Made by a program: the position numbers and the translations under genes. From NCBI GenBank assembly GCA_050696355.1, contig JBOGVD010000085.1, forward strand, positions 5,113 to 69,112: a DNA stretch of 64,000 nucleotides, written 5' to 3'. Shown here piece by piece: positions 22,776 through 41,084 of this stretch; positions within the stretch are counted from its first letter, which is position 1, and each line of letters begins with the position of its first letter. This DNA is from Actinomycetota bacterium. Its GTDB lineage: Bacteria; Actinomycetota; UBA4738; HRBIN12. The notes under the pieces were generated by a model that saw only the letters and a program-made list of their open reading frames with translations, ran no database searches and was not told the DNA's origin.

Positions 22776-24036
22776 CGGTGGTCTCCGGACCCTCGCCGTT
22801 CCGATCCGGCGCTCGGGTGATGAGCACGCTCGCGATCCGGCGACCCTGGACCTTGTCGGCTTTCAGGTGCAGCCCGCGGAACGCGACCGCCTCGCCGGCT
22901 TCCGGCATGCGGCCGAACAGGTCGAGCATCAGCCCGGCCACGGTGTCCCACTCCTCGTCCGGCAGCTCCGCGCGCAGCAGCTCGTTCACGTCGTCGATCG
23001 AGGCCTTCCCGGAGACCCGATAGGTCCCGTCGCCGAGCTCCAGCACCTCCGGCTCCTCCAGGTCGTACTCGTCGGCGATCTCGCCGACGAGCTCCTCCAG
23101 CAGATCCTCGAGCGCGACGATGCCGGTGACGGAGCCGTGCTCGTCGTAGACGAGCGCCTGGTGGAACTTCTCCCGCTGCATCTCCTTCAAGAGCTCGGCC
23201 ACGCGCTTGGTTTCCGGCACGAAGCGCGCCTGCCGCGCGATCTCGGACAACGGAGTGTCGCGCTTGCCCTGATGCAGCGCCTTCAGGACATCCTTCGCGA
23301 ACACCACACCCTTCACCTCGTCGAGCGACTCGTGGAAGACGGGGACCCGCGAGAACCCGTGCGACAGGACCAGCGCCTGGACGTCGCGGAGCGTCTTGTC
23401 GTCCTCGACCGCGACGATGTCCGGGCGCGGCACCATGACCTCGCGCACGATCGTGTCGCCGAACTCGAAGATCGAGTGGATCAGCTCCTTCTCGCCCTCG
23501 TCGATCGACCCCTCCTCGGAGCCGACCTCGGCCATCGACCGGATCTCCTCCTCCGAGACGAACGGGCCCTGTTTCAACCCCTTGCCGGGCAGGAGGACGT
23601 TCGCCAGGCCGATCAGGATCCGGGTCGGCGCGGCGAGCAGCCGGCCGAGGAACCAGACGATCGGCGACAGCGTGAGCGCCACGCGGTCCGTGTGCAGGAC
23701 CGCGAACGTCTTCGCCATCGCCTCGACGACGACGAAGTACAGGAGCGTGAAGACGAACGACACGACCGCCACCCACGTGTCCCGGAAGCGTTGCTCGGCC
23801 AGGATCGCGACGAGGATCGCCGACCCGTTCTGCACGAACATCACGGTGAGGTACACGGCGTTCAGGTAGCGAGGTGGATCCGACTCGATCTGGACGAGCG
23901 TCTCCGCGTTGCGTCGCCCCTCCTCCTGGAGCGCGAGCGCGCGGACGCGAGACATCCGCGTGAGGGACGCCTCCGCCGCGGCGAGCACGGAACCGAAGAC
24001 CACGAGCGCGAGCGCCACGAACCAGAGCCAGTTCAT
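22768..24036 (-). CDS. CNNM/hemolysin-family transporter (DUF21-CBS pair-CorC_HlyC)
   Basis: N-terminal DUF21 TM region, CBS pair, and a C-terminal CorC domain (YRVSGKASIDDVNELL). ATG 24036 overlaps the ybeY stop (ATGA). Confidence 0.85.
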   Translation of the reverse strand: MNWLWFVALALVVFGSVLAAAEASLTRMSRVRALALQEEGRRNAETLVQIESDPPRYLNAVYLTVMFVQNGSAILVAILAEQRFRDTWVAVVSFVFTLLYFVVVEAMAKTFAVLHTDRVALTLSPIVWFLGRLLAAPTRILIGLANVLLPGKGLKQGPFVSEEEIRSMAEVGSEEGSIDEGEKELIHSIFEFGDTIVREVMVPRPDIVAVEDDKTLRDVQALVLSHGFSRVPVFHESLDEVKGVVFAKDVLKALHQGKRDTPLSEIARQARFVPETKRVAELLKEMQREKFHQALVYDEHGSVTGIVALEDLLEELVGEIADEYDLEEPEVLELGDGTYRVSGKASIDDVNELLRAELPDEEWDTVAGLMLDLFGRMPEAGEAVAFRGLHLKADKVQGRRIASVLITRAPDRNGEGPETTDE

Positions 24037-24488
24037 GGCGTTCGCACCCCGCTGTAGCGCTCCTGCCGCTCCCACATCCGCGCGCGGTCGCCGTCCTCCT
24101 CGTGGTCGTAGCCCAGGAGGTGCAGGATCCCGTGGACGAGCAGGAGCCGGAGCTCCGCTGCCGGGTCCGCCGGGTTGTTGCGCTCGGCCTCCGCGGGCGC
24201 CACGACCACATCGCCGAGGAGGCGCACCCCTTCTCGTCCCTCGTCGACATCCTCCAGCGGGAACGACAACACGTCGGTGGGACCGGGCTCGTCCATGAAC
24301 CGTTCGTGCAGGTCCGCGATCTCCGCCGCTCGCACGAACGACACCGAGAGCTCCGCGCGATCGACGCCTTCAGCCTGAAGCGTCTCCTCCGCGAGCGCGC
24401 GCAGGCCGTCCAGGTCCAACGGGCCGTCCTGGCGGTCGGAGATCAGGACGCGGGGCCGGGAACCGGCCGGATGTCCGTCCTCCATCAT
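24033..24488 (-). CDS. ybeY: rRNA maturation endoribonuclease YbeY
   Basis: HGILHLLGYDH zinc motif. ATG 24488 overlaps the phoH stop (ATGA). Confidence 0.9.
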   Translation of the reverse strand: MMEDGHPAGSRPRVLISDRQDGPLDLDGLRALAEETLQAEGVDRAELSVSFVRAAEIADLHERFMDEPGPTDVLSFPLEDVDEGREGVRLLGDVVVAPAEAERNNPADPAAELRLLLVHGILHLLGYDHEEDGDRARMWERQERYSGVRTP

Positions 24489-26569
24489 CCGTCCATCCCG
24501 AGGCGCTGCTGACCGTAGCGGTCGTAGGCCGCGACGATCTCCTGGACGATCTTGTGCCGCACGACGTCGCGCCCGCCGAGCCGGCAGAACGAGATCCCGG
24601 TGATCCCGGACAGGATCTCCTCGATCACGAGGAGTCCGGAGCGCTGCCCCGTGGCGAGGTCGACCTGCGTGTCGTCGCCGTTCACGACCGCCTTGGACCC
24701 GAACCCGATCCTCGTGAGGAACATCTTCATCTGCTCGGGGGTCGTGTTCTGGGCCTCGTCGAGGATGATGAACGCATCGTTCAACGTGTTGTGCGTCACG
24801 AGGAAGTCGTCCGTCACATAGAGGGAGTCCTGAGCCCCTACCTGGATGCACACGGTGTCTGCCTCACCCGCGGGCTCGATGCGATCGACGAAACGCATCG
24901 GCCGGCCGCCGCCGCCGAACGCAACGTACGTTGCCGACTTGCGGGTGAGCCGGAACGGTGCGACGTGCGCCGGAAGCCGGATGTCGAGCACGAACGCGTC
25001 GTTGCGGAAATGGACCGGACGGCCACCGGCTCGCCCGGGGTGTCGCCCAGCGGCTTCCCGAGTGCGCACGTACGCGATGCCTCCGAGCGATCGCACGAGG
25101 AACAACACGTCGTCGCGAAGCTGCGGCGACGTCGTGCAGTATTGGATGCGGGAAGTGCGACCTGCCTGGGTGACGGGACCGCCATCGGAATCGAGCAGTC
25201 CTTGGAGCACGGCCAGCCGGATCTCCGGCGAATTGTGCAGGTAGATCCATGGAACGAACTTCGTGCTCGAGATCGCGTCGGCGAGCCCGAGGCCGCGGAG
25301 CGCCGCCGTGACCGGGTTCGTCACGATCACGCCGCCCCGTCCGCCGTGCCGCAGCACGAAGTCGTAGCGCCCCCGCTGCACGAGTTCGATGCCGGGGAGC
25401 GCCATCTCGAGCGCCAGCGCCAGCTCGGGATCAGCGGTCGTGAACGACGGTGTCGTCGAGGTCGTGATGCATCCGTCGCCGAGCAGCAGGCCGAGGGCGT
25501 ACGCGTCGAGCGGTACCTCGCGGGGAACGAACTCCACCGGCTTCGAGAGGAGAGGGAGCTCGAACCGTCGTGCGTGAGCCGCACGCAGCCGGCCGAGCAT
25601 CTGTCGCGTCTCGAGAACCCGCGGGCGGCGCCCCACTCGTTTGTCGGCGGCGGTTGACACGGCCCAGAGGTGCTCGCCGCAGCACAGCGTCGTCGCCCCG
25701 TCTTGCGCGACCAGACGGTAGACCGCTCGACGGCTTTGCGGGAAGACGCCCAAGACCGGCGTCGGCAACCCATCCGACCCGATCACGAGATCGCCCACGT
25801 CCAGTTCGCCGATCGGGCGGAACCCGTCGGGCGTGAGCACGTTCCGATCGAGCGGCTGCGCTCGGCCGCGCATGAAGGCGAGTGGGGCGACCTCCACGGT
25901 GCCTCGTTCCATCAGCCGGGAGAGGCTGTCACCTCCGGTCATCTCGAACAGCGCGTCGTAGAGCGGGCGCATGTACGGGTCGATCTTCTCGTAGAGGGTG
26001 CCGGGCAAGAACCCGAGCCGCTCCCCCGCCTCGACGGCAGGGCGCGTGAGGATCAGCCGCGAGACCTGGCGATCCTGCAGCGCGCGCACCGCCGTGGCGA
26101 CCGCGAGGTAGGTCTTGCCGGTGCCGGCCGGTCCGATCGCGAACGTGACGGTCGAGCCGCGCATCGCATCGACGAACCGCTTCTGCCCGACGGTCTTGGG
26201 AGCCACAGAGGTGCCTCGCGCCGTGAGGAGTGTGTCGCCGAGCACGTCGCTCGGGCGCATCCTGGCGGTCGAGTCGCCGCCCGCCTCGTCCTCGAAGCCG
26301 CCCTTGATCAGCTCGATCGTCTGCCCCACCGATGAGTCGGAGAGCTGGTGGCCCTTCTCGAGGAGCGCCAGGAGCTCTTCGAACAACCGAGCGAGCTGCC
26401 CGGCCTCGTGGTCGGGGCCCGTGATCGTGATCTCGTTGCCGCGAACGAGGATGTCGGAGTCAAACGCCGCTTCGATCAGCTTCAGGAAGGCGTCCTGCTG
26501 GCCCAGCAGGGCCACCATCGGCTGGTGGCCGGGAACGAGGATCTTCACTTGCGTGGTGGCGGCTGCCAC
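24485..26569 (-). CDS. phoH: PhoH-like ATPase precursor containing an intein
   Basis: Walker A is GPAGTGKT. The ...LAFMRGR / TLNDAFIILDEAQNTT Walker-B context is split by 358 extra residues. The two exteins total 336 aa, a normal PhoH length. The exact start is uncertain (GTG 26569). Confidence 0.9.
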   Translation of the reverse strand: MAAATTQVKILVPGHQPMVALLGQQDAFLKLIEAAFDSDILVRGNEITITGPDHEAGQLARLFEELLALLEKGHQLSDSSVGQTIELIKGGFEDEAGGDSTARMRPSDVLGDTLLTARGTSVAPKTVGQKRFVDAMRGSTVTFAIGPAGTGKTYLAVATAVRALQDRQVSRLILTRPAVEAGERLGFLPGTLYEKIDPYMRPLYDALFEMTGGDSLSRLMERGTVEVAPLAFMRGRAQPLDRNVLTPDGFRPIGELDVGDLVIGSDGLPTPVLGVFPQSRRAVYRLVAQDGATTLCCGEHLWAVSTAADKRVGRRPRVLETRQMLGRLRAAHARRFELPLLSKPVEFVPREVPLDAYALGLLLGDGCITTSTTPSFTTADPELALALEMALPGIELVQRGRYDFVLRHGGRGGVIVTNPVTAALRGLGLADAISSTKFVPWIYLHNSPEIRLAVLQGLLDSDGGPVTQAGRTSRIQYCTTSPQLRDDVLFLVRSLGGIAYVRTREAAGRHPGRAGGRPVHFRNDAFVLDIRLPAHVAPFRLTRKSATYVAFGGGGRPMRFVDRIEPAGEADTVCIQVGAQDSLYVTDDFLVTHNTLNDAFIILDEAQNTTPEQMKMFLTRIGFGSKAVVNGDDTQVDLATGQRSGLLVIEEILSGITGISFCRLGGRDVVRHKIVQEIVAAYDRYGQQRLGMDG
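24788..25861 (-). mobile_element. intein (358 aa) with a LAGLIDADG homing-endonuclease domain; Ala1, class-3-like WCT signature
   Basis: It begins AQPLDRNVLTPDG directly after RGR and ends LVTHN directly before TLND. The dodecapeptide motifs are LGLLLGDGC and LQGLLDSDGG. Block B is CCGEHLW, block F is DTVCIQV and block G is FLVTHN/T. Confidence 0.85.
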
Positions 26570-38697: not shown

Positions 38698-41084
38698 CGC
38701 TCGGACTCTACCGTCGGCCGGTGACCGTCGAAGGTCACGGAGATCGTGCCGTCGAGGTCCGTGCGCCACACCTCGGCGCCGGAGGCGACGAGCGCGTGGA
38801 GGATCTCGGCGTTCGGATGCCCGTAGTCGTTGCCGACGCCGACGCTCACGAGCGCGACCTCGGCACGGACCGCTTCGAAGAGCTCCGGCACCGACGTGCC
38901 CCCGCCGTGATGCGGCACCTTGAGGACGTCGACGTCGGGGAGGGTCCTGCGCTCGAGCAACCACTCTTGCGCGGGGATCTCGGCATCGCCCGTGAGCAGG
39001 ACGGTGTCCTCCCGCAGGGAGAGGAGGATCACGAGCGAGTCGTTGTTCGCGTCGGACTCTGTCCCGGTCCAGCAGCTCTCCGGCGACAGGACGTCCAGGC
39101 GGAGGTCGCCGACGCGGAACACCTGCCCGGCGCGCGGGTTCACCTCCTCGATGCCCTCCTCCTCGACCGCGCGATCGAGGTCCGTCTGCGCGGGCGACTC
39201 GTCCGAACAGCCCGGCTGCATCAAGACGCCCACCGGGACGCGTGACAGGACCGTTGGCAGGCCCACCACGTGGTCGGCGTGCGGGTGGGTCGCGATCACG
39301 GCGTCGAGCCGCCTCACGCCGAGGGCGGCCAGCTGCGTCGCGACCGCGCGCTCGTCCGGACCACCGTCGACGAGGATCGTCGCTCCACCCGGGCTCGTGA
39401 CGAGGATCGCGTCTCCTTGACCGACATCCAGAGCCCGGACCGTGAGGCCGGCCGGCGGACCGGATCCGAGCGCCGAGGCCCAGACCAGGACGGGGAGACA
39501 GCCGACGGCGAGCACCGTCGCCGGCCGGGGCGGCGTCCAGCCTGTCCTGATCCACACCACGACCGCGCACACGAGACCGATCCCGACCACCAGCACGACG
39601 GGGCCCCCTTCCGCGGTGAGGTATCCGACGGGAGCCTTGCCGAGGTGATCCGCGACGAGCTCGAGCCACCGCATCGGCAAGAGCGCCACGGCGGCGAGGA
39701 CCTTGCCGAGCGGGAGCCAGACGAGGCCGCCGCCGGCGGCCGTCGCGCCGAGGAGGAGCGAGGGCGCCACGAGCGGGAACGCCGCGAGGTTCGCCGGCAG
39801 CGTCACGAGCGGGACCTCCTGGAAATAGAAGAGCAGGATGGGGGTGACTCCCAGCTGCGCGGACACCGTCGCGCCGGCCGCCGTCGCCATCGCCTTCGGG
39901 ACGAACCGGCCGAAGCGGTCTGCGAGCGGGCCGGCGAGCGCGACCATCCCGGCGGTCGCCGTCACGCTGAGCTGGAAGCCCACCGACCACGCGAGCCAAG
40001 GGTCCAGGACGAGGAGTCCGAGCACCGCCGCCGACAGGATCGACGCGGTGGTGCGGGGCCGGCCCATCAGGATGCCGACCAACGCGAGACACGCCATCAC
40101 GCCGGCGCGGAGGACCGACGGCTCGGCGCCCGTGAGGATCGTGAAGAACGCCACGATGCCGAACCCGACCGCGAACGTCGGCCACCTGGCCATGCGGAAG
40201 AGCGTCGTGGCCGCGAGCACCGGCGCGAGCACCATCGCGACGTTCCCGCCCGAGACCACGAGCAGGTGGCTGAGACCGGACGCGCGGAAATCTCGCTCGA
40301 GCCCGACGTCGAGCTTCGAGTCGTCTCCGAGGAGCAGCCCGAGGAGCAGCCCGGCCTCCTTCGGGGGGAAGACCCGCTCGATCGAGCGCCCGACGATCCG
40401 CCTGGCCGACTGCGTCGTTCGGACGAACAGGCTCGAGGACGGCCCCAGCCGCCGCAACGACGAGAGCCCGAGCTGTGCCGGGATGCCCTTGGACACAAGG
40501 ATCGCGGCGAACCCGGGGTCGTCGGGAACCCTGAGCGAACCCTCGAGCAAGACACGGTCGCCGCGACGGGCTGCGGGCAGCGGTTCGTCCCCGCTGACCC
40601 AGACGAGGGAACGCAGCGTGGCCGCTCCGTCCGGCCACTGTATGCGACGAACCTGCGCGACCGTCGACCAGCCGAACGTCGCCTTCGCCGGATCCGTCCG
40701 AAGGACCGCTTCGACCGTCACGCGCTCGGGCGCCAGACGAGCGAGGAAGGACGACGCGAGCGCGCGGTGGTGGAACCCGCCCCATGCTGCCCCAAGGGCG
40801 AGGACGCCCACCAGCGAGATCACGGCCGCAGCGACCGGCCGTGCCGAGAGAACGCGCCCGCCGGCGACGGCCTCGACGCTCGCGTGCTCGGCCGGGAGCA
40901 GGCCCGCGCGCGCGAGCGCTCCGGGACCTCGCCGCTCCCGCCCGGCGGCCAGCCATCCGATACCGAGCGCGAGGAGCCCGGAAGCGAGCACGATCCCCGG
41001 GTCGAGCCATGGCGGCGGCGTCGCCCAGCCGATCAGGCCCGCGGCGAAGGCGACGGCCGCGGACGGCAGCATCCACGAGCCCAC
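38694..41084 (-). CDS. comEC: DNA internalization competence protein ComEC/Rec2 (with metallo-beta-lactamase domain)
   Basis: Multi-TM competence domain plus a C-terminal MBL fold (LDVGQGDAILV, THPHADH). Confidence 0.9.
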   Translation of the reverse strand: MGSWMLPSAAVAFAAGLIGWATPPPWLDPGIVLASGLLALGIGWLAAGRERRGPGALARAGLLPAEHASVEAVAGGRVLSARPVAAAVISLVGVLALGAAWGGFHHRALASSFLARLAPERVTVEAVLRTDPAKATFGWSTVAQVRRIQWPDGAATLRSLVWVSGDEPLPAARRGDRVLLEGSLRVPDDPGFAAILVSKGIPAQLGLSSLRRLGPSSSLFVRTTQSARRIVGRSIERVFPPKEAGLLLGLLLGDDSKLDVGLERDFRASGLSHLLVVSGGNVAMVLAPVLAATTLFRMARWPTFAVGFGIVAFFTILTGAEPSVLRAGVMACLALVGILMGRPRTTASILSAAVLGLLVLDPWLAWSVGFQLSVTATAGMVALAGPLADRFGRFVPKAMATAAGATVSAQLGVTPILLFYFQEVPLVTLPANLAAFPLVAPSLLLGATAAGGGLVWLPLGKVLAAVALLPMRWLELVADHLGKAPVGYLTAEGGPVVLVVGIGLVCAVVVWIRTGWTPPRPATVLAVGCLPVLVWASALGSGPPAGLTVRALDVGQGDAILVTSPGGATILVDGGPDERAVATQLAALGVRRLDAVIATHPHADHVVGLPTVLSRVPVGVLMQPGCSDESPAQTDLDRAVEEEGIEEVNPRAGQVFRVGDLRLDVLSPESCWTGTESDANNDSLVILLSLREDTVLLTGDAEIPAQEWLLERRTLPDVDVLKVPHHGGGTSVPELFEAVRAEVALVSVGVGNDYGHPNAEILHALVASGAEVWRTDLDGTISVTFDGHRPTVESER

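Follow-up and report, generated by a model that had tools for sequence, protein, structure and literature searches.

What fills the additional length of a long phoH gene, by which chemistry it would leave the protein, and how it came to be there are the questions raised by a locus in a 64,000-nucleotide (nt) stretch of DNA, hereafter the window, from a bacterium of the Actinomycetota (assembly GCA_050696355.1, contig JBOGVD010000085.1, positions 5,113 to 69,112 of the forward strand). The phoH open reading frame (ORF) in the window encodes 694 amino acids (aa), which an earlier note, made from the sequence alone, had set against the ~330 aa of an ordinary PhoH protein, and the frame runs uninterrupted through all 694 codons. 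We conclude with high confidence that its product is the precursor of a PhoH (YbeZ-type) ATPase carrying an intein of 358 residues, which belongs to the rarer class 3, encloses a LAGLIDADG endonuclease with two motifs and is placed between Arg236 and Thr237 in the numbering of the mature protein. The parts of the precursor are the following (here and below, an arrow marks a junction between intein and extein, or the corresponding seam).

24485..26569, minus strand: phoH precursor ORF, 694 aa from a GTG start; P-loop ATPase of PhoH/YbeZ type that carries one intein
25862..26569, minus strand: N-extein, residues 1-236, with the C-terminal end ...APLAFMRGR
26111-26134, minus strand: Walker A motif GPAGTGKT, precursor residues 146-153, in the N-extein
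24788..25861, minus strand: intein, 358 aa, assigned to class 3; splicing domain that encloses a LAGLIDADG homing endonuclease
24485..24787, minus strand: C-extein, 100 aa and stop, beginning TLNDAFIILDEAQNTT; its first residue is Thr+1
24746-24766, minus strand: Walker B motif ILDEAQN, precursor residues 602-608, in the C-extein

The insert (1074 bases, window 24788-25861, minus strand) lies between R236 and T595 of the precursor and is translated as AQPLDRNVLTPDG...FLVTHN. In a Pfam search the PhoH match (E=1.3e-84) is broken in two, with residue 237 as the end of its first part, and LAGLIDADG_3 falls between the parts (E=4.9e-11, above the cut-off). When the two exteins are joined, the resulting protein of 336 aa aligns with C. 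glutamicum PhoH (3B85) without a gap across the seam ...APLAFMRGR↓TLNDAFIILDEAQNTT... (E=1.7e-86). Among database proteins, the 120 that match the joined exteins best share 89-94% identity with them and are mostly 328-340 aa long, and none carries the insert (120/120). At the DNA level, an intein-free relative (protein P0369, locus L081) reads TTCATGCGCGGGCGA↓ACGCTGAACGAC where the window has its 1074 extra bases, so the empty phoH site, lying around TTCATGCGCGGGCGA↓ACGCTGAACGACGCG, is an intact target that matches the flanks in the window. The seam without intein is therefore seen both at the protein level (3B85 and the 120 homologues) and at the DNA level (L081), and because the extein alignment is gap-free and the empty site is preserved in L081, the insertion can be described as exact and in frame. 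The split between R236 and T595 that the earlier note had drawn, and the seamless junction it had expected on comparison with intein-free PhoH, both agree with the translation and the extein alignment. That note had also put the insertion in the Walker B region: the insert directly follows the conserved MRGR motif and adjoins Walker B, 8 residues upstream of its Asp, but the Walker B motif itself is not split. Since the intein separates MRGR from Walker B, the precursor would be expected to be inactive as an ATPase until splicing has taken place.

The assignment of the intein to class 3 depends on four conserved splicing blocks, located as follows.

25823..25861, minus strand: block A, AQPLDRNVLTPDG; position 1 is Ala, a non-nucleophile
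25658..25699, minus strand: block B, GATTLCCGEHLWAV, with Cys61 (B:7), His64 (B:10) and Trp66 (B:12; codon 25664-25666)
24812..24859, minus strand: block F, DTVCIQVGAQDSLYVT, with Cys338 (F:4; codon 24848-24850), the predicted branch-point nucleophile
24785..24808, minus strand: block G and the +1 residue, DFLVTHN↓T, with Thr356 (G:5; codon 24794-24796), His357, Asn358 and Thr+1

Within the intein, the motif CCGEHLW occupies residues 60-66 and DTVCIQV residues 335-341, and THN↓T forms the C-terminal junction. In alignments, the class 3 DnaB inteins of M. smegmatis (6BS8) and M. chimaera (6RIX) have His65 and Trp67 opposite His64 and Trp66, and Asp62 opposite Cys61. In gp41-1_WCT (6RIZ), the counterpart of Cys338 is the engineered Cys, and that of the Thr356-His357-Asn358 run is THN; the roles of the residues in the class 3 DnaB and gp41-1_WCT structures have been described (PMC6195587, PMC7664689). 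Because the alignment to 6BS8, 6RIX and 6RIZ fixes the block positions, Trp66, Cys338 and Thr356 can be placed at B:12, F:4 and G:5, the Trp-Cys-Thr (WCT) triplet. The N-terminal splicing half also matches gp41-1 and 6RIZ by sequence (E ~1e-12 to 4e-14), as well as 6RIX, 6RIY and 6BS8. The features that identify an intein are all found here (blocks A, B, F and G, the block B His64, His357-Asn358, Thr+1 and a predicted HINT fold), together with those of class 3: Ala1 in place of Cys, Ser or Thr, the triplet Trp66/Cys338/Thr356, and Thr+1, a position filled in this class by Ser or Thr and rarely by Cys. Ala1 and Thr+1 are in accord with the published definition of the class (PMC2807308). The individual residues and motifs named in the earlier note (Ala1, the FLVTHN end, Thr+1 and both LAGLIDADG motifs) are all where it had put them, and its class 3 block assignment is upheld by the structural alignments and by every allele described below.

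The endonuclease lies between blocks B and F.

24902..25549, minus strand: homing endonuclease domain, intein residues ~105-320
25469-25495, minus strand: LAGLIDADG motif 1, LGLLLGDGC, intein residues 123-131, with Asp129
25178-25207, minus strand: LAGLIDADG motif 2, LQGLLDSDGG, intein residues 219-228, with Asp226

Both motifs retain their acidic residues (Asp129 and Asp226), so far as can be judged from sequence the domain looks intact, and the middle part of the intein aligns with PI-SceI. An AlphaFold model of the intein, built on 41 homologues, has a mean predicted local distance difference test (pLDDT) value of 90.9. The best fold matches to this model in the PDB are PI-SceI structures (template modelling score, TM, 0.68-0.72), and its splicing domain can be superposed on 6BS8, 6RIY and 6RIZ with a root-mean-square deviation of 1.3-2.7 Å; for the class 3 DnaB inteins, the better-superposed chains give 1.3-2.9 Å. 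In the model, the HINT fold matches those of PI-SceI and of class 3 and class 1 inteins.

With the intein alone as query, 1430 proteins at E≤1e-3 were found among the 8000 candidates scored. The best 120 matches are all PhoH proteins, with 66-76% identity over nearly the whole intein. A scan of species-representative genomes returned 80 loci, which include cultured taxa (Amycolatopsis, Saccharothrix, Actinomycetospora, Actinosynnema, Actinomadura, Nocardiopsis, Microbacterium and Streptomyces boetiae) as well as metagenome-assembled genomes (MAGs) labelled Limnocylindria, Binatia and Polyangiaceae. Named entries in a second search came from Kutzneria, Acrocarpospora, Kibdelosporangium, Nonomuraea, Spirillospora, Actinomadura and Jatrophihabitans. 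The exact protein of the window was not found in the protein collection searched.

The search for allelic inteins in other PhoH genes, which the earlier note had suggested, thus yielded 183 alleles for comparison (74 loci, 108 proteins and the window itself). All 183 occupy one site, MRGR↓(A/S)QP...THN↓(T/S)LN, and each of the six key positions, namely the block B His, Trp B:12, Cys F:4, Thr G:5, the terminal His and the terminal Asn, is invariant (183/183). Position 1 is Ala in 156 alleles and Ser in 27, and the +1 residue is Thr or Ser in every listed case among the genome loci. Cys61, which had been flagged as a departure from the usual Thr at B:7, is indeed present and proves to be the norm for this allele: B:7 is Cys in 176 of the 183, Ser in six and Thr in one, and B:6 is Cys in 145. 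The acidic residues of the endonuclease are nearly as constant (Asp129 in 179/183, Asp226 in 175/183). The intein of the window is 58-80% identical to the alleles in 70 genome loci, the best being locus L001 (80%), and among the full-length alleles (n=62) the mean intein identity is 68%, compared with 71% for the ATPase core. Most alleles are 357-360 aa long.

Several further observations were made on this family. Some alleles at this site are shortened to 300-331 aa (L066-L071, L073 and L079; from Actinokineospora, Actinosynnema, Amycolatopsis jejuensis, Nocardiopsis algeriensis and several MAGs), and their sequences suggest that part of the endonuclease domain has been lost. P0124 (921 aa) and P0128 (992 aa), both of the PhoH family, each contain a class 3 intein at the MRGR site used in the window (MRGC in P0128) and a further one that follows the Walker A Lys (PAGTGK↓AQPLD...THN↓T). 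Many public intein-bearing phoH entries, ~455-477 aa long, start exactly at the Met of MRGR (P0353, P0278, P0287 and 17 others), and some of these come from large genome contigs (Mycobacterium sp., Acrocarpospora corrugata and Nonomuraea sp.). An N-extein of at least 200 residues is kept in only 5 of 166 entries. Gene callers thus appear to truncate or split intein-bearing phoH genes, and PhoH is probably mis-annotated in the genomes with MRGR-start entries.

More distant relatives were sought in an exhaustive search of 1.84 billion cluster representatives, which gave 17,643 matches at E≤1e-3. From the top 150 proteins, 152 full-length related inteins were recovered, mostly in other host proteins, with SNF2 helicase and DnaB among the hosts sampled. 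Most of the 152 sit after the Walker A Lys (...G-K↓AQPLD...THN↓T). When they are aligned together with the intein of the window, the WCT triplet is present in 152 of 153 sequences and Cys at B:7 in 80. Phage relatives at 30-40% identity, among others in terminase and helicase genes of mycobacteriophages, fit the phage link that has been proposed for class 3 inteins (PMC5050341). A profile hidden Markov model (HMM) of the family, run on all six frames of the window, matched the phoH ORF only, so a second intein was not found there.

The surroundings of the gene bear on how the intein arrived. The window contains an intact operon, hrcA-dnaJ-HIT-phoH-ybeY-CNNM/CorC-era, in which the gene downstream of phoH is the following.

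24033..24488, minus strand: ybeY, outside the intein; its ATG overlaps the phoH stop codon (ATGA, 24485-24488)

The intein-free relative at locus L081 has the same gene order as the window (sulfatase, hrcA, dnaJ, HIT, phoH, ybeY, CNNM/CorC, era). The intein differs from its host in the GC content of third codon positions (GC3), which is 0.83 in the intein and drops as low as 0.73-0.80 over the latter half of the endonuclease domain, compared with 0.90-0.95 in the exteins. Neighbouring genes are mostly at 0.91-0.95, with lower values in era (0.87) and the sulfatase gene (0.85). The distance of the intein from the host genes (0.915 +/- 0.036) amounts to only ~2.4 standard deviations from a baseline drawn from crude ORF boundaries, which counts against giving this difference much weight. 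In the most similar intein-bearing loci, extein identity is only 84-87%, and in several loci, including the MAGs labelled Binatia, Polyangiaceae and Limnocylindria, the intein is closer to that of the window than the extein is. Because the closest extein relatives are intein-free, the most similar intein-bearing loci share only 84-87% of their extein residues with the window, intein GC3 is low and intein similarity can exceed extein similarity, the sequences suggest a recent invasion, or horizontal acquisition, by the intein in the lineage of the window. A foreign origin of the whole phoH gene was considered and rejected, as the exteins are 89-94% identical to those of intein-free relatives with the same gene order. 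Elsewhere in the window (40552-40645, plus strand), ARAGORN reported a tRNA-Thr(CGT) that is unusually long at 94 nt. Both strands carry long ORFs in this region, and the prediction may be spurious, or else the tRNA may contain an intron or be anomalous in another way.

By homology and by the published class 3 pathway, which was defined in PMC2807308 and confirmed for three more inteins in PMC5222942, we infer the following course of splicing and endonuclease action. Cys338 (F:4), aided by the block B residues His64 and Trp66, would attack the Arg236-Ala1 bond, which would place the N-extein on a branched thioester at block F, in class 3 a thiol-labile intermediate. The N-extein would then pass to the hydroxyl of Thr+1 to give the ordinary block G branched ester, after which cyclisation of Asn358, helped by His357, would release the intein. 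An O-to-N acyl shift would finally produce a native Arg-Thr bond and a PhoH of 336 aa. Once freed, the intein is predicted to act through its endonuclease on phoH genes that lack it, with cleavage at ...TTCATGCGCGGGCGA↓ACGCTGAACGAC..., and repair would copy the intein in. Such homing into empty phoH sites is proposed as the reason for the patchy and apparently recent presence of the intein in the lineage.

Several points weigh against this interpretation. The Pfam Hint models stay below their cut-offs (Hint_2 with 17.5 bits against a cut-off of 28.4, and Hom_end_hint with 13.9 bits), so that, of the profile comparisons suggested in the earlier note, LAGLIDADG_3 gave a match above its cut-off but the Hint models did not; Pfam Hint matches alone would not have settled the identity of the intein. 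When WCT was grafted onto gp41-1, a class 1 intein, the product was not able to splice as a class 3 intein (PMC7664689), and because of this failure the triplet is to be read as a marker of class 3 and not as proof of mechanism. The presence of Ser1 in 27 of the 183 alleles (15%) means that the family may tolerate, or partly use, a first step similar to that of class 1; the Ser1 alleles (e.g. L015, L018, L038 and L060) retain WCT, and three of the 37 WCT inteins in the founding survey of class 3 also start with Ser or Cys (PMC2807308). Finally, according to a paper of 2026 (PMC13347336), the M. smegmatis PhoH intein is unstudied with respect to splicing, and no such work on any PhoH intein has been reported.

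Other routes and fates have to be set against class 3 splicing. Assignment to class 1 was rejected, as position 1 is Ala and there is no Cys, Ser or Thr for an N-S/O acyl shift. In a class 2 (KlbA-like) route, Thr+1 would attack the N-terminal junction directly and Cys338 would have only a structural or activating part. Ala1 is compatible with this, Thr+1 is in place, and in the model of Tori 2010 the +1 hydroxyl is about as near to the scissile carbonyl as the F:4 sulfur (PMC2807308). However, class 2 (KlbA-type) is defined by the lack of a WCT triplet, which is present here and invariant in the alleles, and on this ground the assignment was rejected; moreover, the F:4 Cys is obligatory in every class 3 intein tested, with no substitution by the +1 residue (PMC2807308, PMC5222942). 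We regard direct attack by Thr+1 as very improbable. The same slight chance is given to a decaying element, that is, an intein that no longer splices and has made this copy of phoH effectively a pseudogene. Alleles of 300-331 aa elsewhere, in which part of the endonuclease domain has been lost, would fit such decay, but in the window the 694-codon frame is open with every catalytic and signature residue intact, the intein is as conserved as the ATPase core (mean 68% vs 71%), the exteins remain 89-94% identical to intein-free PhoH, and the hrcA-dnaJ-HIT-phoH-ybeY-corC operon is undamaged down to the ATGA overlap with ybeY.

A somewhat better case, although still an unlikely one, can be made for a class 3 intein that has been kept as a redox or zinc switch, in which the Cys60-Cys61 pair and Cys338 would form a disulfide or a zinc site and leave PhoH inactive under oxidative or metal stress. 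The frequency of Cys at B:7 (176/183) and at B:6 (145/183) among the alleles speaks for it, as do the position of phoH within a heat-shock and ribosome-quality operon and the behaviour of the M. smegmatis DnaBi1 intein, in which zinc, or a disulfide that joins the F:4 Cys to another Cys, causes a reversible block (PMC6195587, PMC7360933). If this were true, oxidative or metal stress would restrain splicing and with it the activation of PhoH, whose gene lies in the hrcA-dnaJ-phoH-ybeY operon for stress and ribosome maturation. The control would resemble that of M. smegmatis DnaBi1 but with a different, conserved Cys partner inside a splicing block. The idea draws only on analogy, however, and the allele can do without the Cys pair, since the Mycobacterium sp. 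copy P0353 has Ala and Ser at B:6 and B:7. In addition, Cys at B:7 is common in the relatives from other hosts (80/153), and the closest relatives of the window lack the intein, which favours a selfish element over a needed regulator. A mobile intein that splices by the class 3 pathway thus remains the preferred interpretation.

Neither the kind of intein nor its host is new. A 2015 survey (PMC4760082) placed PhoH in the top 15 of intein hosts in bacteria and counted 21 PhoH inteins, from Actinobacteria and Deinococcus-Thermus. One intein has been noted in PhoH of M. smegmatis (PMC7360933), and in Fig. 6a of Kelley et al. 2018 (PMC6195587) the PhoH inteins of M. fortuitum and M. xenopi are aligned with DnaB inteins as class 3, with WCT marked. 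These mycobacterial inteins share with the intein of the window the host protein, the class and the triplet. In the Mycobacterium sp. protein P0353 the intein occupies the identical site (MRGR↓...THN↓TLND), with Ala-Ser in place of Cys-Cys at B:6-B:7, and the protein is 63% identical to that of the window over the aligned region (intein and C-extein); by analogy with P0353, the site may also be the one used in M. fortuitum OBK00716 and M. xenopi EID13626. The Actinomycetota alleles (in Amycolatopsis, Saccharothrix, Actinomycetospora, Kutzneria, Nonomuraea, Streptomyces boetiae and Microbacterium) have the same site, blocks and endonuclease as the window and a similar length. Because of the two published accounts (PMC4760082, PMC6195587) and the same allele in many public genomes, the kind of intein and the host, and as far as checked also the site, are already known, and the intein of the window is an ordinary copy of a described and very widespread element.

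Among inteins of other hosts, the founding member of class 3, the DnaB intein of mycobacteriophage Bethlehem (full-length, 341 aa; Tori et al. 2010, PMC2807308), was compared by its description. Like the intein of the window, it has no nucleophile at position 1, carries WCT, His-Asn and Thr+1, and resides in an ATPase, but it has Pro1 and Ser at B:7 and is found in a helicase gene instead of at the PhoH MRGR site beside Walker B. The M. smegmatis DnaBi1 and M. chimaera DnaB1 inteins (6BS8, 6RIX, 6RIY), whose block B His and Trp align with those of the window residue for residue, differ in being mini-inteins without an endonuclease, in having Asp at B:7 and in their location at the DnaB P-loop. 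An intein of the same AQP...THN↓T type at the DnaB P-loop (P0154) is 47% identical to that of the window. PI-SceI, the yeast VMA1 intein, is the best match over the whole fold (TM 0.71) and likewise combines a HINT domain with a two-motif LAGLIDADG endonuclease, and gp41-1, which of all PDB sequences matches the N-terminal splicing half best, likewise ends in THN. In contrast to the intein of the window, however, both belong to class 1, with Cys1 and Asp or another non-Cys residue at F:4, and gp41-1 is split.

What is mildly new is therefore local: an invasion that looks recent, for which a matched relative with the empty site is at hand, and the near-invariant B:7 Cys of the PhoH allele. The locus offers a clean, natural, full-length class 3 intein with an apparently intact endonuclease, and since very close intein-free relatives exist, it provides matched alleles that would be well suited to testing the homing and splicing of PhoH inteins.

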